64,000 bases of DNA from Scenedesmus sp. PABB004 (taxonomy: Eukaryota), in the NCBI GenBank assembly GCA_014905635.1, contig JABVCE010000029.1, forward strand, positions 372,001-436,000, in the 5' to 3' direction. How positions within the stretch are numbered: the stretch's first letter is position 1; each line of letters opens with the position of its first letter. Shown here piece by piece: positions 50,601 to 64,000 of this stretch. Position numbers and translations under genes: made by a program. Under the pieces are notes generated by a model. The model saw only the letters and a program-made list of their open reading frames with translations, was not told where the DNA came from and did no database searches.

Positions 50601-52202
50601 TGCCGCCGCCGCCGGCGCTCGGCGACGTGGCAGGCGCGCGCCCGCGCGCCGCGCGCGGCCGCGGCGCCGCGCCGCGCCGCGGCGCCGGCCCTCGCGGCGC
50701 CCGCGCGCGCGCCTCCCACCCCGCCCCGCGCGCGCGCGTGCCGGCCCGGCCCGCAGGCTGCGGCGCGCCGCGCGCCGGCAGCGCGCCCAGCACGCCGGGC
50801 GGGAGGGCGGGCGTGAGCTTTGGGTCCTTCTGCTCCCTCATGGCCGAGGTGCTCGCGGCGCGGCGCGGCCCGCGCGCCTACCTCGCGCCCTCGCCGCCGC
50901 GCACGTTTGTGCCGGCGGAGACGTTCCAGCCGACGATCACGCAGCGCTCCAAGCAGCTGGCCGCCAAGATCCGGCCCAAGGCGCGACGCGGCGCGGCGCG
51001 GCGCGGCCCCGCTGGCGGGCGGGCGCGCGCGCCGCGCGCACCGCCCCGCCCTGACCCCGCCCGCCCCGGCGCGCCGCCCGCGCACGCACAACCAAACGCG
51101 CCGCCGCCAGGACACGCCGCTGTTCGAGGCGCTGTACGCCGAGGGCGGCGCCATCCGCGCCAAGCTGAGCGAGAAGCGCGCGGCCGCCGAGGCGCAGGCC
51201 ACCAGCAGCTGCACCTTTGCGCCGCGCCTGGTGTCGCACCAGATGGTCAAGGAGGGCCGCGTCATGCGGGTGCGAGCGCGGGGGGCACGCGCGCCGCGAG
51301 CGGGGGCACGCGCCCCGCCGCGCGTCGCCGCGCCGCGCGGCGCCCGCGCGTCGCCGACCGCGCGCCGCGCGCGGCGCCCGCCCCGCCCCGCGCAGTCGGT
51401 GCGCGACGGCACGTGGAACACCAACAGCGCGGCCACCAGCAAGGGCGGCGCGCTGGACAGCGCCGACAGCCTGCAGGCGCTCGCGGCGCTCATGGCCGGC
51501 GGCGCGGAGCAGCGCCCCGCGGCGCAGCAGCCCGCGGCGGCGGCGGCTGCGGCGGCGGAGCGGCCGGCCGAGGCGCAGCGCCTGGCGGCCAAGGAGCTCA
51601 GCGCCCAGCTCGCGCGGCTGCAGGAGGCGCAGGACGCGGCCGAGGCGGCGGCGGCGGCCGAGGAGGCGGCAGGCGCGGAGGAGCGGCGCGCCGCGGCGGG
51701 CGAGGCGGGGTGCGACGCGGAGGCGGGCGAGGCGGGCGAGGCGGGCGAGGAGGACGACTTTGAGGGCAGCGAGGAGCAGCGCGCGTACCTGGAGCTGGAG
51801 GCGGAGGTGGCGCAGATGCTCGCCGCCACGAGCGCCGCGGCCGAGGCGGCGGAGCGCCTGCACAGCGCGAGCGACCAGCAGTACCTCAGCCAGATCCTGG
51901 GCCTGGCGCAGGAGCAGGTTGACGCGATGGCGCCCGCCATCTCCCAGCTGCAGGGCCTGCAGGTCGGCGGCCACAGCCGCACCGAGTCGTTCGCCTCCGA
52001 GGCGTCGCCCTCCGCCGCGGCGTCGGCCACAGGCGCCGCGGCGGGGCCCGGCGGCGCGCGCCGCGCCTGCAGCAGCAGCCCGCCCAAGAGCAGCGCAACG
52101 GCGGGCGCGGCGGCGGGCGGCGCGCGTGCCGTGCAGGCCTCGGCGGGCAAGGCGCCGCTGGACCTCTTCCAGCTGGCGGCGGGCGTGGAGGGCAGCAGCT
52201 GA
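47660..52202 (+). CDS. Uncharacterised multi-exon protein with repeated (C)TFxPxI/L motifs, an EF-hand-like segment and coiled coils
   Basis: N-terminal VDIGDGASDRIEVREGDVPLEVAAAFVAKHGL, motifs VTFKPEI, CTFKPSL, VTFAPKL, LFTPET, TFQPTI and CTFAPRL, RLY motifs, and IFDFLDQEGLGCVDL. Exon phases are consistent. Confidence 0.75.
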
Positions 52203-52611
52203 GCCGGGTGCTGTCGCGGCCAGGTGCTGTCGCGGCCAGCGCGGTGCTCGTCTTGGGGTGCTGCGGGGCATTGCTGGAGCGGTGATCACAACAAGAGCAG
52301 AAGGGTGGCTGGGGGGCGACCCTAAAAGAGCTATGCACGTGACGTGTGCGTGTGTGGACGGCTGCCTGCGTGCCCGAGCTGCTGCGCCCCTGCGCTTGCC
52401 GTCGGCAGACCGCTGACGGCAGGATTCGCGACGACGCCCTAGTTGGGGGCGTCAGATTTCATGGCCAGCTGCTGCAGGGCAGCGAGAACAGGTCTAGAGC
52501 CATCGCAAGCAAAGTGCGGCGGCGCAGGGTAAGGTGCTGGTCAATCAGATCCGGCAGGCGCGCAGCACCCTCGCCGCGCAGCACCCTCGGCACGCAGCAC
52601 CCTCGGCGCAT

Positions 52612-52726
52612 AGCGCCGCCCGCGCGCGCGCTGCTCGGCGGCGCCGCGGCGCAGCGCTGCCGGGCGCCGTTCCCCTAGCCCCGCCGCCCCTGCGCAGCGG
52701 AGGTGCGCGGCTGCAAGGTGCTGCCC
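52612..52726 (+). repeat. Partial, slightly diverged monomer of the 172-bp satellite at the gene/repeat boundary
   Basis: Matches the second half of the monomer (...gccgttcccctagccccgccgcccctgcgcagcggaggtgcgcggctgcaaggtgctgccc). Preceded by three 16-bp cgcagcaccctcg units at 52561-52608. Confidence 0.85.
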
Positions 52727-52729
52727 AGC

Positions 52730-54789
52730 GGCGAGCTTCTTCGAGATGGGGCCTGACAGCAGGCTCCGCACCGCCGAGCCCCCGCCCGAGATAGTCGCGG
52801 CGGGGGGGGGTGGGAGGACTGCTGCGTGGTGGACGCGGCGCAGGCGCCGCGGCCAGCGGCGGGCGCGCAGCGCGCGGCGGCCGGAGCGCCCGGTGCAGCG
52901 GCGCCGGCGGAGCAGCCGGAGATGCACAGCAGGGCGCGGCGATGGTGCCTCGTGGGCTTCTGGCCTGACGTCCGCGTCGACCCCTCCGTGTGGGGGCTTG
53001 GGCACGCGGCCACGGTCATGCAGTTTACGGTGCGCGGCGCGACCCTGCGGCTGCTGCAGCTGCGCTGCGCGCGCGAGGTCACGCCGGCAGGGGGCTGGAC
53101 GCCCGGCGTTGGCTGCGTGCCGGGCCTCTGGCGCGCCGGCTACGGCCAGGCCTGCCCGGCCAGCGCCATCGCGCGGCGGGAGGCGGGCCAGAAGCGCAGC
53201 TGGGCGGAGCGGCAGCGAGCCGAGACGCCAGACCCGGAGCCTGGGCTGCCGGCGTGGCAGAAAGTCTCGCCCCCGCGGCGCCACGTCATGGAGCGCGTCG
53301 GGCCGGCGGCGGCCGCTGCCGCCGCGGCGCGGCGCGAGGAGCATGAGCAGCGGCGGGAGCAGCAGCTGGAGCAGCGCAGGACCCTGGTTCAGGAGCCGGC
53401 GGCCAACGACCTCGTCGACCCGCTCACTGGTGCGACTGCGCCGCCGCGCGCCGGCGAGCGCGCGGAGCCGCCCGCCTGGGCCGCCTGCTACGCGCGCGCG
53501 CAGCAGGCGCGCATGCCGCGCGCCCTGCGACACTTTGGCTGGAGCCTGCTGCACGGCGGGGTGCGCGTCAGCGGCGACAGGGTCTTCTCTTACCAGCGCG
53601 CGGCGCCGGAGCTGGCGGAGCTGGCGTGCCCGCACCCGCTCTGCCGCGCGCAGCAGCAGCCGCCGCTGGAGACGCTCGGCCACGTCCTCGGCGGATGCCC
53701 CGTGGCGGCGGCGGTGCTGCAGTGGTTTGCTCACCTCTGGGCGCGGCTGCAGCCGGGCTTCCCGCGCGCGCCGCCCCCGCCCAGGGTGATGCTGGCGGAC
53801 GACTTTGCCAGGTCGGGCGTCGCGCCGGAGCTGCAGCAGCTCTGGACGCACCTCCGCCTGCTGCTGCTGCGCGCCCTGCTTGCCGCGCGCGCGCGGCACG
53901 GCGGCGGCCAGCCCGGGCACGCGCCTGCGGCGGCGATTCGCATCTTTGTGTACTCGGTGCGCGACGCAGTTGTGCTGGACTGGCGCAAGGCAGCGATGGA
54001 TGTGCGCGCGCTGGCGGGCGTGCCGCGCTCCTGGCTGTCGGGCTCCGGCAAGGAGCTCACTCGGGCAGGTTTCGAACGCCGGTGGTGCCACCGAGGGGTC
54101 ATCGCGCGCACGGGCCAGCACGGGGGCCGCTTCACAATGGAGTTCCGGCTCACCGCAGCGGGCGTGCCGGCGCTGCCGGCGGCGCCGGCGCTGGCCCCGC
54201 CGGCGGCGCAGGACCCCGTGGCGGCGGCGGCGGCGGCGGCGGCGGCGCAGCGCGGCGGCTAGCTGCAGGGGCCGGGGGGGGTCCGCGGCCGGGCTTGCTG
54301 CGACCCCGGCTGGCTGCGTGTCGCGCCTCTTCTGCAACGTGCAAGGTTGGGCGGTGTCCGCCCGTGCCGCGGGGCTGGTGTCTGCGTGTTTGTCGTCGCG
54401 CGGCGAGGGGGCTGCAGCCGATGGGGCCGGCCCCATCCGCCGCCAGCGTGGATGGCGTTTGCGCGTGATCTCTGCGCGGAGGCTTGGGGCCGGTGCACCT
54501 CGCTGCACCGATGCCCGGTGCGGCTCGCCGCACCGGAAGGGGGGTGTGCGGCCTGATCTGCTGCTGCCCCTTTGATTGCGGGGCATCACCTGGTCTCCTT
54601 GGGCGCCCGTTGGGCGTTGGCCTCTGGCTGTGCCGTTGGGTGATGTGTGGGCCCCCTCTCGGGGGGCGCCGGGGCGCGGTTTTTCACGAGGGGTTGCTGC
54701 GCTCTTCCCGTTGGAGCTTTTTTCAGTGGGCTGCCCCTGGGCCTCGGTCCTTGTCTGGTCACCCGTTGTAACAAAAAAAAAAAAAAAAA
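52730..54789 (+). mobile_element. 5'-truncated L1-clade non-LTR retrotransposon, copy 1 (ORF2 3' part, 3'UTR, poly(A))
   Basis: ORF 52826-54262 has a zf-RVT-type CCHC knuckle (FGWSLLHG...CPHPLC...ETLGHVLGGC). Then a 0.5-kb UTR, TGTAA at 54767 and an A-tract at 54773-54789. No RT or endonuclease domain is present. Confidence 0.85.
52826..54262 (+). pseudogene. C-terminal fragment of LINE ORF2 (zf-RVT region)
   Basis: 478-aa open frame with the CCHC motif. It extends upstream as ASFFEMGPDSRLRTAEPPPEIVAAGGWEDCC if the G-run at 52802 has 7 G, as in copy 2. Confidence 0.75.
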
Positions 54790-55056
54790 CCCAACGGCAC
54801 AGCCAGAGGCCAACGCCCAACGGGCGCCCAAGGAGACCAGGTGATGCCCCGCAATCAAAGGGGCAGCAGCAGATCAGGCCGCACACCCCCCTTCCGGTGC
54901 GGCGAGCCGCACCGGGCATCGGTGCAGCGAGGTGCACCGGCTCCAAGCCTCCGCGCAGAGATCACGCGCAAACGCCATCCACGCTGGCGGCGGCAGGGGC
55001 CGGCCTCAGCGGCATCAGCCCCCGCGCCGCGCGACGACACACGCACCCACCAGGGG

Positions 55057-55442
55057 ATAAAGATAAAGATAAAGATAGTTACACCACAGGCTCGCGCCCA
55101 TTGGTCCCGCGCCCCTTAAGGACGGTGTCCCGCATCTTCCAGATGTCCATCACATAATCTGCCACAGAGTGAACATCAAGCTGATCCTGCAGCAGGTCAC
55201 CAAGCAGATAACGCCGAGCCTGCTCCAGTGCTGCACACCGACTCGCCGGGCCGGTAACGGCAGCCCGAGGGGCCGCCGCACCAGCAGAGACGCTGCTGAC
55301 GCTGACCGCCGCGCTGACATCATCAGCCCGAGGGGCCGCCGTATCAGCCGTGACGCCGCTATCGCTGATGCTGACCGCCGCGCCTGCGTCAGCAGCCCGA
55401 GGGGCCGCCGCGCTAGCCACGACGCCGGGGTCGCTGACGCTG
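55057..55442 (-). mobile_element. 5'-truncated fragment of a second non-LTR family (RTEX/CR1-like C-terminus) with a (CTTTAT)n tail
   Basis: 7-bp TSD CCAGGGG at 55050-55056 and 55443-55449; empty site at about 57201-57215. ORF end ...LLQDQLDVHSVADYVMDIWKMRDTVL...VV* is followed by ctat(ctttat)3. Confidence 0.75.
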
Positions 55443-55636
55443 CCAGGGGGCAGCAGTTGGCTTTGCTGCAAAAACCCCTGAGAAAGCCGCGCACCGATGA
55501 GAAAGCCGCCCCACCGGGCAGGCAGCACGCCAAGCCGCCGCGCACGGAGCGCGTGCAGCCGCCAAACACGCCGGCGGCGCCAGGGGCCGGCCCCATCGGC
55601 TGCAGCCCCCTCGCCGCGCGACGACAAACACGCAGA

Positions 55637-56967
55637 GGCGAGCTTCTTCGAGGTGGGGCCTGACAGCAGGCTCCGCACCGCCGAGCCCCCGCCGAGATAG
55701 TCGCGGCGGGGGGGTGGGAGGACTGCTGCGTGGTGGACGCGGCGCAGGCGCCGCGGCCAGCGGCGGGCGCGCAGCGCGCGGCGGCCGGAGCGCCCGGGGC
55801 AGCGGCGCCGGCGGAGCAGCCGGAGATGCACAGCAGGGCGCGGCGATGGTGCCTCGTGGGCTTCTGGCCTGACGTCCGCGTCGACCCCTCCGTGTGGGGC
55901 TTGGGCACGCGGCCACGGTCATGCAGTTTACGGTGCGCGGCGCGACCCTGCGGCTGCTGCAGCTGCGCTGCGCGCGCGAGGTCACGCCGGCAGGGGGCTG
56001 GACGCCCGGCGTTGGCTGCGTGCCGGGCCTCTGGCGCGCCGGCTACGGCCAGGCCTGCCCGGCCAGCGCCATCGCGCGGCGGGAGGCGGGCCAGAAGCGC
56101 AGCTGGGCGGTGCGGCAGCGCGCCGAGACGCCAGACCCGGAGCCTGGGCTGCCGGCGTGGCAGAAAGTCTCGCCCCCGCGGCGCCACGTCATGGAGCGCG
56201 TCGGGCCGGCGGCGGCCGCTGCCGCCGCGGCGCGGCGCGAGGAGCATGAGCAGCGGCGGGAGCAGCAGCTGCAGCAGCGCAGGACCCTGGTTCAGGAGCC
56301 GGCGGCCAACGACCTCGTCGACCCGCTCACTGGTGCGACTGCGCCGCCGCGCGCCGGCGAGCGCGCGGAGCCGCCCGCCTGGGCCGCCTGCTACGCGCGC
56401 GCGCAGCAGGCGCGCATTTTTTTTTATTTATTATTTTTTTTTTTTGTTACAATGGGTGACCAGACAAGGACCGAGGCCCATGGGCAGCCCATTGAAAAAA
56501 GCTCCAACGGGAAGAGCGCAGCAACCCCTCGTGAAAAACCGCGCCCCGGCGCCCCCCGAGAGGGGGCACACACATCACCCAACGGCACAGCCAGAGGCCA
56601 ACGCCCAACGGGCGCCCAAGGAGACCAGGTGATGCCCCGCAATCAAAGGGGCAGCAGCAGATCAGGCCGCACACCCCCCTTCCGGTGCGGCGAGCCGCAC
56701 CGGGCATCGGTGCAGCGAGGTGCACCGGCCCCAAGCCTCCGCGCAGAGATCACGCGCAAACGCCATCCACGCCGGCGGCGGCAGGGGCCGGCCTCAGCGG
56801 CATCAGCCCCCGCGCCGCGCGACGACCGACACGCAGACACCAGCCCCGCGGCATGGGCGGACACCGCCCAACCTTGCACGCTGCAGAAGAGGCGCGACAC
56901 GCAGCCATCCGGGGTCGCAGCAAGCCCGGCCGCGGACCCCCCGGCCCCTGCAGCTAGCCGCCGCGCT

Positions 56968-56998
<31 letters not shown>

Positions 56999-57620
56999 GG
57001 GGTCCTGCGCCGCCGGCGGGGCCAGCGCCGGCGCCGCCGGCAGCGCCGGCACGCCCGCTGCGGTGAGCCGGAACTCCATTGTGAAGCGGCCCCCGTGCTG
57101 GCCCGTGCGCGCGATGACCCCTCGGTGCTGCCTGCCCGGTGGGGCGGTGTTCTCATCGGTGCGCGGCTTTCTCAGGGGTTTTTGCAGCAAAGCCAACTGT
57201 TGCCCCCTGGTGTGTGCGTGTGTCGTCGCGCGGCGCGGGGGCTGATGCCGCTGAGGCCGGCCCCTGCCGCCGCCAGCGTGGATGGCGTTTGCGCGTGATC
57301 TCTGCGCGAAGGCTTGGAGCCGGTGCACCTCGCTGCACCGATGCCCGGTGCGGCTCGCCGCACCGGAAGGGGGGTGTGCGGCCTGATCTGCTGCTGCCCC
57401 TTTGATTGCGGGGCATCACCTGGTCTCCTTGGGCGCCCGTTGGGCGTTGGCCTCTGGCTGTGCCGTTGGGTGATGTGTGGGCCCCCTCTCGGGGGGCGCC
57501 GGGGCGCGGTTTTTCACGAGGGGTTGCTGCGCTCTTCCCGTTGGAGCTTTTTTCAATGGGCTGCCCATGGGCCTCGGTCCTTGTCTGGTCACCCATTGTA
57601 ACAAAAAAAAAAAAAAAAAA
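55637..57620 (+). mobile_element. L1-clade copy 2, 5'-truncated, internally interrupted and deleted
   Basis: 55637-56416 is near-identical to 52730-53513; UTR and poly(A) lie at 57127-57620. Flanked by the 12-bp TSD CAAACACGCAGA (55625-55636 and 57621-57632). Confidence 0.85.
56417..57127 (-). mobile_element. L1-clade copy 3, antisense 0.7-kb 3' fragment inside copy 2
   Basis: Poly(T) at 56417-56445, then GTTACA and the reverse complement of about 54089-54771. No TSD; host sequence is deleted at the site. Confidence 0.85.
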
Positions 57621-57674
57621 CAAACACGCAGACACCAGCCCCGCGGCACGGGGGGACACCGCCCAACCTTGCAC

Positions 57675-59380
57675 GCGGCTCCAAGGTGCTGCCCGGCCAC
57701 GGGCTGCGCCGCCGAGCGCCGCCGCCGGCGGCCGCGCCGCGCCGCGGGCCGCGCGCCGCCCGCGCGCGCGCCGCTCGGCGGCGCCGCGGCGCAGCGCTGC
57801 CGGGCGCCGTTCCCCCTGCCCCGCCGCCCCTGCGCAGCGGAGGTGCGCGGCTGCAAGGTGCTGCCCGGCCACGGGCTGCGCCGCCGAGCGCCGCCGCTGG
57901 TGGCCGCGTCGCGCCGCGGGCCGCGCGCCGCCCGCGCGCGCGCCGCTCGGCGGCGCCGCGGCGCAGCGCTGCCGGGCGCCGTTCCCCCTGCCCCGCCGCC
58001 CCTGCGCAGCGGAGGTGCGCGGCTCCAAGGTGCTGCCCGGCCACGGGCTGCGCCGCCGAGCGCCGCCGCCGGCGGCCGCGCCGCGCCGCGGGCCGCGCGC
58101 CGCCCGCGCGCGCGCCGCTCGGCGGCGCCGCGGCGCAGCGCTGCCGGGCGCCGTTCCCCCTGCCCCGCCGCCCCTGCGCAGCGGAGGTGCGCGGCTGCAA
58201 GGTGCTGCCCGGCCACGGGCTGCGCCGCCGAGCGCCGCCGCCGGCGGCCGCGCCGCGCCGCGGGCCGCGCGCCGCCCGCGCGCGCGCCGCTCGGCGGCGC
58301 CGCGGCGCAGCGCTGCCGGGCGCCGTTCCCCCTGCCCCGCCGCCCCTGCGCAGCGGAGGTGCGCGGCTCCAAGGTGCTGCCCGGCCACGGGCTGCGCCGC
58401 CGAGCGCCGCCGCCGGCGGCCGCGCCGCGCCGCGGGCCGCGCGCCGCCCGCGCGCGCGCCGCTCGGCGGCGCCGCGGCGCAGCGCTGCCGGGCGCCGTTC
58501 CCCCTGCCCCGCCGCCCCTGCGCAGCGGAGGTGCGCGGCTCCAAGGTGCTGCCCGGCCACGGGCTGCGCCGCCGAGCGCCGCCGCCGGCGGCCGCGCCGC
58601 GCCGCGGGCCGCGCGCCGCCCGCGCGCGCGCCGCTCGGCGGCGCCGCGGCGCAGCGCTGCCGGGCGCCGTTCCCCCTGCCCCGCCGCCCCTGCGCAGCGG
58701 AGGTGCACGGCTGCAAGGTGCTGCCCGGCCACGGGCTGCGCCGCCGAGCGCCGCCGCCGGCGGCCGCGCCGCGCCGCGGGCCGCGCGCCGCCCGCGCGCG
58801 CGCCGCTCGGCGGCGCCGCGGCGCAGCGCTGCCGGGCGCCGTTCCCCCTGCCCCGCCGCCCCTGCGCAGCGGAGGTGCGCGGCTGCAAGGTGCTGCCCGG
58901 CCACGGGCTGCGCCGCCGAGCGCCGCCGCCGGCGGCCGCGCCGCGCCGCGGGCCGCGCGCGCCGCGCGCGCGCGCCGCTCGGCGGCGCCGCGGCGCAGCG
59001 CTGCCGGGCGCCGTTCCCCCTGCCCCGCCGCCCCTGCGCAGCGGAGGTGCGCGGCTGCAAGGTGCTGCCCGGCCACGGGCTGCGCCGCCGAGCGCCGCCG
59101 CCGGCGGCCGCGCCGCGCCGCGGGCCGCGCGCCGCCCGCGCGCGCGCCGCTCGGCGGCGCCGCGGCGCAGCGCTGCCGGGCGCCGTTCCCCCTGCCCCGC
59201 CGCCCCTGCGCAGCGGAGGTGCGCGGCTGCAAGGTGCTGCCCGGCCACGGGCTGCGCCGCCGAGCGCCGCCGCCGGCGGCCGCGCCGCGCCGCGGGCCGC
59301 GCGCCGCCCGCGCGCGCGCCGCTCGGCGGCGCCGCGGCGCAGCGCTGCCGGGCGCCGTTCCCCTGCCCCGCCGCCCCTGC
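57675..59380 (+). repeat. 172-bp GC-rich satellite, array 1 (about 10 monomers)
   Basis: The marker caaggtgctgccc recurs at 57682, 57854, 58026, 58198, 58370, 58542, 58714, 58886, 59058 and 59230, an exact 172-bp spacing. Confidence 0.97.
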
Positions 59381-60074
59381 GGCGTGTTTGGCGGCTGCGC
59401 GCGCTCCGTGCGCGGCGGCTTGGCGTGCTGCCTGCCCGGTGGGGCGGTGTTCTCATCGGTGCGCGGCTTTCTCAGGGGTTTTTGCAGCAAAGCCAACTGT
59501 TGCCCCCTGGTGTGTGCGTGTGTCGTCGCGCGGCGCGGGGGCTGATGCCGCTGAGGCCGGCCCCTGCCGCCGCCAGCGTGGATGGCGTTTGCGCGTGATC
59601 TCTGCGCGGAGGCTTGGGGCCGGTGCACCTCGCTGCACCGATGCCCGGTGCGGCTCGCCGCACCGGTAGGGGGGTGTGCGGCCTGATCTGCTTTTTTTTT
59701 TTTTTTTTTTTTGGTTACAATGGGTGACCAGACAAGGACCGAGGCCCATGGGCAGCCCATTGAAAAAAGCTCCAACGGGAAGAGCGCAGCAACCCCTCGT
59801 GAAAAACCGCGCCCCGGCGCCCCCCGAGAGGCCCCCCTGATCTGCTGCTGCCCCTTTGATTGCGGGGCATCACCTGGTCTCCTTGGGCGCCCGTTGGGCG
59901 TTGGCCTCTGGCTGTGCCGTTGGGTGATGTGTGGGCCCCCTCTCGGGGGGCGCCGGGGCGCGGTTTTTCACGAGGGGTTGCTGCGCTCTTCCCGTTGGAG
60001 TTTTTTTTCAGTGGGCTGCCCCTGGGCCTCGGTCCTTGTCTGGTCACCCATTGTAACAAAAAAAAAAAAAAAAA
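59381..60074 (+). mobile_element. LINE 3'UTR plus poly(A), carrying an antisense 144-bp 3'-end insertion (59692-59835)
   Basis: UTR sequence, TGTAA and A-tract. The insert is poly(T) plus the reverse-complemented 3' end, with TSD CCTGATCTGC (59682-59691 and 59836-59845). Confidence 0.88.
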
Positions 60075-60126
60075 CAAACACGCAGACACCAGCCCCGCGG
60101 CACGGGGGGACCGCCCAACCTTGCAC

Positions 60127-61140
60127 GCGGCTCCAAGGTGCTGCCCGGCCACGGGCTGCGCCGCCGAGCGCCGCCGCCGGCGGCCGCGCCGCGCCGCGGG
60201 CCGCGCGCCGCCGCGCGCGCGCGCCGCTCGGCGGCGCCGCGGCGCAGCGCTGCCGGGCGCCGTTCCCCCTGCCCCGCCGCCCCTGCGCAGCGGAGGTGCG
60301 CGGCTGCAAGGTGCTGCCCGGCCACGGGCTGCGCCGCCGAGCGCCGCCGCTGGCGGCCGCGTCGCGCCGCGGGCCGCGCGCCGCCCGCGCGCGCGCCGCT
60401 CGGCGGCGCCGCGGCGCAGCGCTGCCGGGCGCCGTTCCCCCTGCCCCGCCGCCTGCGCAGCGGAGGTGCGCGGCTCCAAGGTGCTGCCCGGCCACGGGCT
60501 GCGCCGCCGAGCGCCGCCGCCGGCGGCCGCGCCGCGCCGCGGGCCGCGCGCCGCCGCGCGCGCGCCGCTCGGCGGCGCCGCGGCGCAGCGCTGCCGGGCG
60601 CCGTTCCCCCTGCCCCGCCGCCCCTGCGCAGCGGAGGTGCGCGGCTCCAAGGTGCTGCCCGGCCACGGGCTGCGCCGCCGAGCGCCGCGCCGGCGGCCGC
60701 GCCGCGCCGCGGGCCGCGCGCCGCCGCGCGCGCGCCGCTCGGCGGCGCCGCGGCGCAGCGCTGCCGGGCGCCGTTCCCCCTGCCCCGCCGCCCCTGCGCA
60801 GCGGAGGTGCGCGGCTGCAAGGTGCTGCCCGGCCACGGGCTGCGCCGCCGAGCGCCGCCGCCGGCGGCCGCGCCGCGCCGCGGGCCGCGCGCCGCCCGCG
60901 CGCACGCCGCTCGGCGGCGCCGCGGCGCAGCGCTGCCGGGCGCCGTTCCCCCTGCCCCGCCGCCCCTGCGCAGCGGAGGTGCGCGGCTGCAAGGTGCTGC
61001 CCGGCCACGGGCTGCGCCGCCGAGCGCCGCCGCCGGCGGCCGCGCCGCGCCGCGGGCCGCGCGCCGCCCGCGCGCGCGCCGCTCGGCGGCGCCGCGGCGC
61101 AGCGCTGCCGGGCGCCGTTCCCCCTGCCCGCCGCCCCTGC
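60127..61140 (+). repeat. 172-bp satellite, array 2 (about 6 monomers)
   Basis: Marker at 60134, 60307, 60477, 60648, 60818 and 60990. Confidence 0.95.
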
Positions 61141-61828
61141 GGCGTGTTTGGCGGCTGCGCGCGCTCCGTGCGCGGCGGCTTGGCGTGCTGCCTGCCCGGT
61201 GGGGCGGTGTTCTCATCGGTGCGCGGCTTTCTCAGGGGTTTTTGCAGCAAAGCCAACTGTTGCCCCCTGGTGTGTGCGTGTGTCGTCGCGCGGCGCGGGG
61301 GCTGATGCCGCTGAGGCCGGCCCCTGCCGCCGCCAGCGTGGATGGCGTTTGCGCGTGATCTCTGCGCGGAGGCTTGGGGCCGGTGCACCTCGCTGCACCG
61401 ATGCCCGGTGCGGCTCGCCGCACCGGTAGGGGGGTGTGCGGCCTGATCTGCTTTTTTTTTTTTTTTTTTTGGTTACAATGGGTGACCAGACAAGGACCGA
61501 GGCCCATGGGCAGCCCATTGAAAAAAGCTCCAACGGGAAGAGCGCAGCAACCCCTCGTGAAAAACCGCGCCCCGGCGCCCCCCGAGAGGCCCCCCTGATC
61601 TGCTGCTGCCCCTTTGATTGCGGGGCATCACCTGGTCTCCTTGGGCGCCCGTTGGGCGTTGGCCTCTGGCTGTGCCGTTGGGTGATGTGTGGGCCCCCTC
61701 GGGGGGCGCCGGGGCGCGGTTTTTCACGAGGGGTTGCTGCGCTCTTCCCGTTGGAGTTTTTTTCAGTGGGCTGCCCCTGGGCCTCGGTCCTTGTCTGGTC
61801 ACCCATTGTAAAAAAAAAAAAAAAAAAA
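61141..61828 (+). mobile_element. LINE 3'UTR plus poly(A) with the same antisense insertion (61452-61593)
   Basis: Near-identical to 59381-60074, including TSD CCTGATCTGC and the caccggTagg variant. Confidence 0.88.
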
Positions 61829-61882
61829 CAAACACGCAGACACCAGCCCCGCGGCACGGGGGGACACCGCCCAACCTTGCAC

Positions 61883-63413
61883 GCGGCTCCAAGGTGCTGC
61901 CCGGCCACGGGCTGCGCCGCCGAGCGCCGCCGCCGGCGGCCGCGCCGCGCCGCGGGCCGCGCGCCGCCGCGCGCGCGCGCCGCTCGGCGGCGCCGCGGCG
62001 CAGCGCTGCCGGGCGCCGTTCCCCCTGCCCCGCCGCCCCTGCGCAGCGGAGGTGCGCGGCTGCAAGGTGCTGCCCGGCCACGGGCTGCGCCGCCGAGCGC
62101 CGCCGCTGGCGGCCGCGTCGCGCCGCGGGCCGCGCGCCGCCCGCGCGCGCGCCGCTCGGCGGCGCCGCGGCGCAGCGCTGCCGGGCGCCGTTCCCCCTGC
62201 CCCGCCGCCCCTGCGCAGCGGAGGTGCGCGGCTCCAAGGTGCTGCCCGGCCACGGGCTGCGCCGCCGAGCGCCGCCGCCGGCGGCCGCGCCGCGCCGCGG
62301 GCCGCGCGCCGCCCGCGCGCGCGCCGCTCGGCGGCGCCGCGGCGCAGCGCTGCCGGGCGCCGTTCCCCTGCCCCGCCGCCCCTGCGCAGCGGAGGTGCGC
62401 GGCTCCAAGGTGCTGCCCGGCCACGGGCTGCGCCGCCGAGCGCCGCCGCCGGCGGCCGCGCCGCGCCGCGGGCCGCGCGCCGCCCGCGCGCGCCGCTCGG
62501 CGGCGCCGCGGCGCAGCGCTGCCGGGCGCCGTTCCCCCTGCCCCGCCGCCCCTGCGCAGCGGAGGTGCGCGGCTGCAAGGTGCTGCCCGGCCACGGGCTG
62601 CGCCGCCGAGCGCCGCCGCCGGCGGCCGCGCCGCGCCGCGGGCCGCGCGCCGCCCGCGCGCGCGCCGCTCGGCGGCGCCGCGGCGCAGCGCTGCCGGGCG
62701 CCGTTCCCCCTGCCCCGCCGCCCCTGCGCAGCGGAGGTGCGCGGCTGCAAGGTGCTGCCCGGCCACGGGCTGCGCCGCCGAGCGCCGCCGCCGGCGGCCG
62801 CGCCGCGCCGCGGGCCGCGCGCCGCCCGCGCGCGCGCCGCTCGGCGGCGCCGCGGCGCAGCGCTGCCGGGCGCCGTTCCCCCTGCCCCGCCGCCCCTGCG
62901 CAGCGGAGGTGCGCGGCTCCAAGGTGCTGCCCGGCCACGGGCTGCGCCGCCGAGCGCCGCCGCCGGCGGCCGCGCCGCGCCGCGGGCCGCGCGCCGCCCG
63001 CGCGCGCGCCGCTCGGCGGCGCCGCGGCGCAGCGCTGCCGGGCGCCGTTCCCCCTGCCCCGCCGCCCCTGCGCAGCGGAGGTGCGCGGCTGCAAGGTGCT
63101 GCCCGGCCACGGGCTGCGCCGCCGAGCGCCGCCGCCGGCGGCCGCGCCGCGCCGCGGGCGCGCGCCGCCCGCGCGCGCGCCGCTCGGCGGCGCCGCGGCG
63201 CAGCGCTGCCGGGCGCCGTTCCCCCTGCCCCGCCGCCCCTGCGCAGCGGAGGTGCGCGGCTGCAAGGTGCTGCCCGGCCACGGGCTGCGCCGCCGAGCGC
63301 CGCCGCCGGCGGCCGCGCCGCGCCGCGGGCCGCGCGCCGCCCGCGCGCGCGCCGCTCGGCGGCGCCGCGGCGCAGCGCTGCCGGGCGCCGTTCCCCTGCC
63401 CCGCCGCCCCTGC
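61883..63413 (+). repeat. 172-bp satellite, array 3 (about 9 monomers)
   Basis: Marker at 61890, 62063, 62235, 62406, 62576, 62748, 62920, 63092 and 63263. Confidence 0.95.
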
Positions 63414-63780
63414 GGCGTGTTTGGCGGCTGCGCGCGCTCCGTGCGCGGCGGCTTGGCGTGCTGCCTGCCCGGTGGGGCGGTGTTCTCATCGGTGCGCGGC
63501 TTTCTCAGGGGTTTTTGCAGCAAAGCCAACTGTTGCCCCCTGGTGTGTGCGTGTGTCGTCGCGCGGCGCGGGGGCTGATGCCGCTGAGGCCGGCCCCTGC
63601 CGCCGCCAGCGTGGATGGCGTTTGCGCGTGATCTCTGCGCGGAGGCTTGGGGCCGGTGCACCTCGCTGCACCGATGCCCGGTGCGGCTCGCCGCACCGGA
63701 AGGGGGGTGTGCGGCCTGATCTGCTGCTGCCCCTTTGATTGCGGGGCATCACCTGGTCTCCTTGGGCGCCCGTTGGGCGT
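63414..63780 (+). mobile_element. LINE 3'UTR copy without the antisense insertion, interrupted at 63781
   Basis: Empty site gcctgatctgctgctg at about 63714-63729. Similarity to the UTR ends at ...gttgggcgt(tgg). Confidence 0.85.
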
Positions 63781-64000
63781 TGGTCTTGGTCGGAGTAGGC
63801 GCGGTTGTTGCCGGCTAGAGGAGCGAGTCGACAACGGCGGAGAGCGGCGGTTGGCCAACGAGAGAGCACGGAGAGCACGGAGACACGAGTGAAGGAGCAA
63901 AGGTTACATGTGCGTGGTGAAGAGACTCCTTAGGCAAACGGGGCGGGCGCACGGAGCTATATAGCCGAAACGGTATCGGTAATCGCAGCTTCTCGGCGGC
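63781..64000 (-). mobile_element. Probable LTR end (3' or solo LTR) of an LTR retrotransposon; runs off the window
   Basis: Abrupt switch to lower-GC unrelated sequence beginning TG. Read on the minus strand: CTATATAG (63957-63964), then TGTAA (63908-63904), then the terminus ...AAGACCA, which is U3-R-U5 order. Confidence 0.5.

Follow-up and report, generated by a model that had tools for sequence, protein, structure and literature searches.

Self-nesting and insert orientation of a putative L1-like retrotransposon in satellite DNA of Scenedesmus sp. PABB004

When copies of a retrotransposon lie inside older copies of their own family, is their orientation imposed by a guiding mechanism, or does it follow from the composition of the strands that receive them? 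This question is raised by a 64,000-nucleotide stretch of the Scenedesmus sp. PABB004 genome (contig JABVCE010000029.1, positions 372,001 to 436,000; hereafter the window), in which pieces of a poly(A)-tailed long interspersed nuclear element (LINE) adjoin one another in opposite orientations. The original prediction for positions 52730-61828 held that this LINE inserts into its own copies, always antisense to the host copy, and that chromatin or RNA homology might guide it there. All of the listed features are present, and only part of the overall picture stands: two of the four events lack a target-site duplication (TSD), and one of the events proved to have been duplicated. Our preferred explanation, to which we give a probability of about 0.6 as a whole, is that the locus is the edge of a repeat compartment, where a 172-bp satellite would have been invaded by an L1-like LINE through ordinary target-primed reverse transcription (TPRT), with relaxed sequence choice, clustering, and an orientation driven by base composition. 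The antisense pattern would then reflect a small sample plus strand composition, which is a simpler explanation than a guided mechanism. Self-nesting is real, but it is already known for such elements and is ordinary transposon biology as it stands.

Four antisense juxtapositions are found in the window, and two of them are clean, TSD-flanked insertions. Positions within the LINE are expressed here as copy-1 coordinates, with copy 1 as the reference: a 5'-truncated element at 52730-54789 (+) that comprises the C-terminal 501 codons of ORF2 (second open reading frame; 52757-54259, stop to 54262), a short 3' untranslated region (UTR) and an A17 tail (54773-54789). Copy 2 (+) consists of a 5' part (55637-56416; copy-1 52730-53513/4, 98.7% identical to copy 1) and a 3' part (57125-57620; a segment termed Bsp from its position 45, then UTR2 and A18 at 57603-57620). 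It is bracketed by exact 12-bp copies of CAAACACGCAGA at 55625-55636 and 57621-57632, and joining these flanks gives a continuous antisense UTR. The uninterrupted site is known from copy 1 (54381-54392) and from three metagenome contigs (X3 no. 17, X1 no. 4 and X2 no. 11), bearing out the placement of copy 2 in an antisense UTR. The second clean event is a 144-bp (-) fragment within a (+) UTR, flanked by the 10-bp TSD CCTGATCTGC, with empty sites at 57382-57391 (in copy 2) and 63715-63724. The fragment is seen twice, at 59692-59835 and at 61452-61593 (142 bp there), because 57621-63786 is a three-fold tandem higher-order unit; it therefore counts as one event.

The remaining two juxtapositions are less straightforward. 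The poly(A) of copy 1 does abut an antisense UTR at 54790, as predicted: it sits directly on a minus-strand host element, H, at copy-1 position 54641 (54790-55056; copy-1 54641 to 54375, 95.5% identity over 267 bp). H is 3'-truncated exactly at this point, its terminal ~148 bp and poly(A) being absent. They do not reappear on the upstream side of copy 1, whose 5' end is joined to a satellite fragment instead. Since the 3' end of H is gone from both sides of copy 1, this is an abutment with target loss and not the resolvable self-insertion it had been taken for. Copy 3 (56417-57127, -; copy-1 54787 to 54089, with an impure poly(T) at 56417-56445) does lie between (+) pieces of copy 2. Its 3' junction is of the TPRT type, with the tail directly on copy-1 53513/4 of copy 2, but there is no TSD and ~1 kb of the host is absent. 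The 5' end of copy 3 (54089) meets Bsp position 45 through a GTG microhomology (3 nt, 57125-57127), and judged by their sequence these junctions would fit an insertion accompanied by target deletion. The original prediction had asked whether the inversions might be twin-priming products. This was rejected: each inverted piece has its own poly(A) or poly(T), and the 144-bp fragment also has its own TSD. A bias linked to replication direction was likewise rejected, with (+) and (-) inserts lying within the same 5 kb.

Orientation elsewhere in the genome was read from 11 PABB004 gene models (P0001-P0006, P0009, P0010 and P0013-P0015), placed on copy 1 through exact matches of 7-residue words to its six-frame translation; loose tblastn searches with these models were swamped by GC-rich low-complexity matches. 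In P0001, on a contig of 1,269,045 bp, the sense ORF runs to copy-1 53541, gives way to a sense tail with a lysine run (residues 1656-1670, equivalent to 54741-54785; the tail peptide shows 93% identity in tblastn) and resumes at 53531. A host that ends at 53541 and resumes at 53531 implies that a fragment nested in sense orientation duplicated 11 bp of the host, which adds one inferred case of self-insertion to the two that TSDs prove in the window. P0003 (1,304,822-bp contig) contains a sense tail and lysine run (residues 1513-1534) between host positions 53809 and 53846, with no duplication visible. With these two sense-oriented nested tails, the claim that insertion is always antisense fails. 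The window alone gives four antisense to no sense events (two-sided p = 0.125), in keeping with the caution, voiced at the outset, that so small a sample could be chance. Nested events together stand at 4 antisense to 2 sense (p = 0.69), and TSD-proven ones at 2:1.

The targets themselves have very little in common. At the four window events the 3' ends of the nicked strand read GTTTGT, TTGGGT, TCTGCT and GCGCAT, sharing only the final T. The original view that differing targets speak against a single-motif site-specific endonuclease thus holds, as no long common motif exists, and such an enzyme is rejected on the differing host positions as well. T occupies position -1 of the nicked strand (equivalent to A before the TSD or flank on the insert strand) in all four events, an outcome with a chance of ~0.013 (0.391^3 x 0.220) once the ambiguity of tail boundaries is allowed for; P0001 was left out of this count, its junction base being unreadable from protein. 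The sense strand of the UTR contains 115 T and 33 A (T/(A+T) = 0.78), with five T runs and no A runs of at least three bases, and the ORF part contains 181 T and 158-159 A (0.53). Were a terminal T obligatory on the primer strand, the host sense strand would hold 78% of the UTR sites and 53% of the ORF sites, and priming there would yield antisense inserts. Observed UTR events are antisense in 3/3 cases, while ORF events divide into one antisense and two sense. For the six oriented events, the fit of a parameter-free model of this T-skew exceeds that of a 50:50 expectation 3.5-fold and that of a single fitted bias 2.5-fold. T-skew is thus a suggestive candidate for the cause of the antisense tendency. 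It supplies a testable rule for nested LINEs in extreme-GC genomes, namely that orientation follows the local balance of T and A on the host strand, and this would make an RNA-guided mechanism unneeded.

The identity of the element is best approached through its longer relatives. Over 95% of its length the copy 1 ORF matches the PABB004 gene model P0002 with 100% identity, and it is 85-94% identical to five longer PABB004 models, four of which carry a reverse-transcriptase (RT) domain. P0001, P0004 and P0005 each unite RVT_1 (PF00078) with a C-terminal region that matches window 52757-54259 at 85-94% identity; the copies in the window, being truncated at the 5' end, have no RT domain. P0015, a gene model of the same family, contains RVT_1 (E = 2.9e-28) and aligns with the metagenome relative P0007 at 45% identity over 1069 residues. 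P0007, 53% identical in the RT region, carries Exo_endo_phos (PF03372; E = 1.5e-17), RVT_1 and a sub-threshold zf-RVT match, and P0015 aligns to residues 72-275 of its Exo_endo_phos domain. Pfam gave no Exo_endo_phos in P0015, whose N-terminus is incomplete, and no match in the 501-residue window ORF, where direct reading finds a C-x4-C...H-x5-C motif. The tails range from A17 to A19, the TSDs are 10 and 12 bp long and variable in sequence, and 5' truncation is variable, with ends at copy-1 coordinates 52730, 54089, 54338 and 54655. From the domains of the relatives, the ORF motif, and these tails, truncations and TSDs, we assign the family on sequence grounds to the L1-like poly(A) LINEs with an apurinic/apyrimidinic endonuclease (APE) and a Cys-His C-terminus.

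At E<=1e-20 the element has 279 RT relatives, and the best 120 of the 279 are, besides PABB004's own, almost all metagenome proteins of 42-58% identity. Family gene models are spread over contigs of at least nine different lengths. P0002 is a prediction artefact in which the upstream host gene, ending at 52201, is fused to copy 1; P0001 and P0006 are likewise host genes fused with LINE pieces. Several models break after ...ASFFE, at a splice-donor-like GAG|GTGGGG of the LINE.

Host element H (54790-55636 plus 57621-57675, antisense) is interrupted both by copy 2 and by a foreign retroelement. Beyond the UTR2 part described above it continues at 55443-55636 (-) with the 130-bp Bsp and a UTR1 part (copy-1 ~54470 to 54381), and its 5' end lies at 57621-57675 (-; copy-1 54393 to 54338, 98.2% over 56 bp), joined to satellite at 57676. 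H belongs to a long-UTR subtype, UTR1-Bsp-UTR2, in which the sequence runs to copy-1 ~54470, passes into Bsp, which resembles a degenerate, internally deleted UTR, and then enters the UTR again from ~54375. Long UTRs of this type occur at 55443-55636 (-), 57125-57210, 59381-59510, 61141-61270 and 63414-63543. The foreign retroelement (55057-55442, -) is unrelated and 5'-truncated, has a (CTTTAT)n 3' tail, and is flanked within H by the 7-bp TSD CCAGGGG (55050-55056 and 55443-55449). Pfam found no match in its 83-residue ORF end. Longer copies of the (CTTTAT)3-tailed element, and one with a different hexamer tail, are present in metagenome contigs, and one copy lies antisense against the LINE ORF at copy-1 54201 (X3 contig 16).

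Part of copy 1 is contained in 17 public runs, three of which hold 61-65% of its sampled words, and the Logan contigs of four of the 17 (X1, X2, X3 and X5) were mapped on 52600-55700. In the three contigs that carry the uninterrupted copy 2 site, UTR1-Bsp-UTR2 runs on in sense without a break, and 0 letters differ over 55443-55636, so H is a normal long-UTR member and not a rearrangement. X3 contig 17 also skips 393 bp of the foreign insertion, with 7 letters shared at the joint, and so represents its empty site. Contigs of all four runs stop at the poly(A), depth being 0 over 54784-54887, and the poly(A) junctions are neither bridged nor contradicted. An exact 33-nt pattern of tail plus poly(A) gave 0 loci in metagenome contigs, an exact 29-nt UTR pattern gave 0 loci in metagenome, genome and viral contigs, and a 135-residue read-through peptide (antisense tail, sense UTR, sense tail) had 0 matches among 1.84 billion protein representatives.

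To the right of H, 57621-63786 is made up of three tandem units, each consisting of the H 5' end (53-55 bp), 6-10 satellite monomers, Bsp, UTR and poly(A). In unit 1, ~9.9 monomers of the 172-bp satellite (57676-59380, +; G and C variant monomers alternating, at a spacing of 170-172) precede a LINE tail (59381-60074, +; Bsp-UTR2-A17) that holds the nested 144-bp (-) fragment between TSDs at 59682-59691 and 59836-59845. Unit 2 (60075-61828, +) comprises an antisense copy of the H 5' end (60075-60127), 5.9 monomers (60128-61140) and Bsp-UTR2-A19 (61141-61828), with the same nested (-) fragment between TSDs at 61442-61451 and 61594-61603. Unit 3 (61829-63786, +) contains the H 5'-end copy (61829-61883), 8.9 monomers (61884-63413) and Bsp-UTR2 (63414-63786), and the nested fragment is absent from it. 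This unit is cut at 63786 (copy-1 ~54623) by lower-GC sequence that runs to 64000 and is unrelated to the rest of the window, and this sequence could belong to the end of a further mobile element that continues past the window. All units start with the copy 2 TSD and the H 5' end, which identifies them as products of DNA duplication after the insertion of copy 2 and not as independent insertions; unequal crossing-over would be the simplest means of multiplication. That the 1.75-2.45-kb units are full-length retrotransposed elements arranged head to tail was considered and rejected, as only DNA-level duplication explains these exact starts.

G+C content is 76-83% throughout the window, and the LINE family is confined to 52.6-63.8 kb, being absent from 1-52.6 kb. 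All nine A or T runs of at least eight bases fall within 54.7-61.9 kb, and outside LINE tails the 64 kb contain none; no later sense insertion has entered any poly(A) tail of the window. The satellite begins ~400 bp past the stop codon of the upstream host gene. A 16-bp microsatellite found by Tandem Repeats Finder (TRF; 52557-52609) precedes its left edge, which consists of ~0.7 monomer (52610-52729, +; direct reading, TRF and 38-bp matches to monomers). The 172-bp satellite is ~85% GC, and its monomers alternate between ...GGCTGCAAGG... and ...GGCTCCAAGG..., TRF also giving a 343-bp period. Rfam had 0 matches in the window. In two X1 contigs the satellite, likewise oriented, runs into a LINE truncated at a different 5' position (52915 in one junction, 54316 in the other), so the association of LINE and satellite recurs. 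Short exact matches between P0006 (residues 863-873 and 920-940) and the antisense translation of the satellite lie just upstream of a (+) LINE; in sequence of such low complexity they are at most a weak hint of a similar adjacency elsewhere.

We are now able to propose a sequence of events for the locus, in an order that is itself inferred. A 5'-truncated long-UTR copy, H, would have entered the satellite on the minus strand, and the unrelated (CTTTAT)n-tailed element and copy 2 (+) would then have entered H with clean TSDs. Copy 1 (+) would have been primed in H, with loss of the target between its two junctions, and copy 3 (-) in copy 2, with deletion of ~1 kb. Unequal crossing-over between LINE tails and satellite could subsequently have multiplied the unit of H 5' end, satellite, LINE tail and poly(A), one unit gaining the 144-bp (-) fragment before duplicating again. 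All of these insertion events would fit TPRT, with a nicked strand whose 3' base is T as the sole feature common to the four nick sites. The copies may cluster because the family lands or survives in the satellite and LINE compartment, by analogy with Zepp and Zepp-like LINEs of other green algae.

Several points weigh against this explanation. Antisense pieces lie beside a (+) LINE in P0001 (residues 769-781), P0015 (1433-1445) and P0014 (3-14), and with these three juxtapositions the tally of 7 antisense to 2 sense (p = 0.18) still leans antisense. The sense cases were read from predicted proteins and not from DNA, and sense read-through may be over-represented in gene models; six events underlie the T-skew argument. 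Despite different flanks and UTR types, copies 1 and 2 begin within 3 nt of the same LINE position (GGCGAGCTTCTTCGAG; 52730 and 55637), which the explanation leaves unaccounted for. Coincident independent truncations are rare, and this shared end suggests a truncated, transcribed source copy, a reverse-transcription stop site being another possibility; with 5' ends this close, the two copies probably lack full independence. Of 117 positions, 3-4 distinguish the unit tails from that of copy 2, a difference that calls for either a crossover within the final ~60 bp or conversion at a later time. Both the order of events and the crossing-over model are reconstructions, the likeness to Zepp is one of arrangement and not a phylogenetic placement in the Zepp clade, and one window does not separate targeting from passive retention.

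One alternative is a mechanism that steers new copies to old ones and to one strand, whether through R-loops in which LINE RNA leaves a displaced sense strand to be nicked, or through insertion coupled to transcription of the old copy. All four window events and the three additional juxtapositions on other contigs are antisense, and an insertion-level antisense bias has been proposed for human L1 in transcribed genes (PMC5717806). We nonetheless regard such guidance as unlikely, given two sense nested tails, one of them with an 11-bp host duplication, tallies of 4:2 and 7:2 that are both non-significant, and strand T-content that alone predicts 78% antisense inserts in UTRs. Insertion points in host and insert also show no positional or homology relation, which leaves the original suggestion of RNA-homology guidance unsupported. 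The more elaborate form of a guided mechanism, a strand bias beyond T-content in which resident transcripts form R-loops or recruit the ribonucleoprotein, exposing the sense strand so that antisense entry builds an alternating-polarity satellite and LINE compartment, possibly a centromere, strikes us as quite improbable.

A doubtful, though more serious, competitor dispenses with targeting altogether: the LINE would insert anywhere and persist only in gene-poor satellite and transposable-element (TE) DNA, nesting and orientation being products of survival and chance. The cluster does start right after a gene, within satellite, and other TE families are mixed in (the (CTTTAT)n-tailed element here, Copia in P0003 and P0010), as is typical of a TE refuge. 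However, no difference separates copy 3, the tail of copy 2 and the two 144-bp fragments over 117 bp; they are hence very young, yet all lie inside family DNA, and 0 of 5-6 independent events fall in the other 52.6 kb, intergenic parts included. It is far less probable that the TSD-less antisense junctions (copy 1 with H, copy 3 with copy 2) are DNA rearrangements, such as inversion or inverted-copy recombination, or homopolymer assembly chimeras. Both junctions do fall at A/T homopolymers, and the unequal lengths of G runs among the copies point to an assembly from noisy long reads. Each junction nevertheless has the exact TPRT form, with the complete tail placed immediately against a target that ends in T; target deletion at L1 insertions is an established phenomenon, and the perfect 10- and 12-bp TSDs of the other two events could not be created by misassembly.

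TPRT in a repeat compartment, our preferred explanation, can finally be set beside known systems. Insertions of mammalian L1 elements have variable TSDs (10-13 bp), are 5'-truncated, show microhomology where the 5' end joins the target, now and then delete large stretches of target, and are primed from a T-ended strand. The present family resembles them in these respects and in its APE, RT and poly(A). It differs in that its nick sites share just one T, at -1, in place of a TTTT/A-like site, in a window nearly devoid of A/T runs, and in its strong clustering in family and satellite DNA, which is not known as an L1 trait. As in L1 twin-priming inversions, sense and antisense pieces of one family adjoin; in twin priming, however, the inverted 5' segment is tail-less and lies inside a single TSD pair, whereas each inverted piece here has its own tail, and two have a TSD of their own. 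Site-specific LINEs such as R2 and the Tx1 group also insert repeatedly into a particular kind of repeat, and the gene models are automatically named 'transposon TX1', but the four target sites here differ in sequence and in host-element position, with no motif beyond the T at -1.

The closest parallel, by arrangement, is with Zepp (Chlorella vulgaris C-169 / Coccomyxa subellipsoidea) and ZeppL-1_cRei (Chlamydomonas reinhardtii), green-algal L1-type poly(A) LINEs whose copies are described as mostly 5'-truncated, nested and clustered locally as 3' ends. Nested self-insertion of Zepp gives arrays of 3' ends, according to PMC8226300 (citing Higashiyama 1997) and PMC3446292. PMC3446292 describes one Zepp cluster per chromosome in Coccomyxa subellipsoidea C-169 and reports no satellites. 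In Chlamydomonas, bioRxiv 10.1101/2022.06.16.496473 presents ZeppL clusters as putative centromeres; TEs of other kinds are interspersed in them and a number are bordered by satellites, and in these last two respects the present locus is similar. Chlorella centromeres are also rich in LINE/L1 (PMC11005252), and most Scenedesmaceae are LINE-dominated according to PMC13315243. Our literature search returned no report combining ZeppL and Scenedesmus, and nothing on Zepp or centromeres in Sphaeropleales. The nesting that marks Zepp-like LINEs is found here four times within 11 kb, with TSD proof in two cases, and by analogy the locus may work as Zepp and ZeppL clusters do. Unlike Zepp, the host is a Scenedesmaceae alga of ~78% GC and the cluster is embedded in a 172-bp satellite, where the C-169 Zepp clusters are reported to be without satellites. 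Green-algal LINEs that accumulate within their own copies thereby gain a representative from the Scenedesmaceae, and the locus, with its LINE cluster inside a satellite of nucleosome size, may mark a candidate centromere edge.

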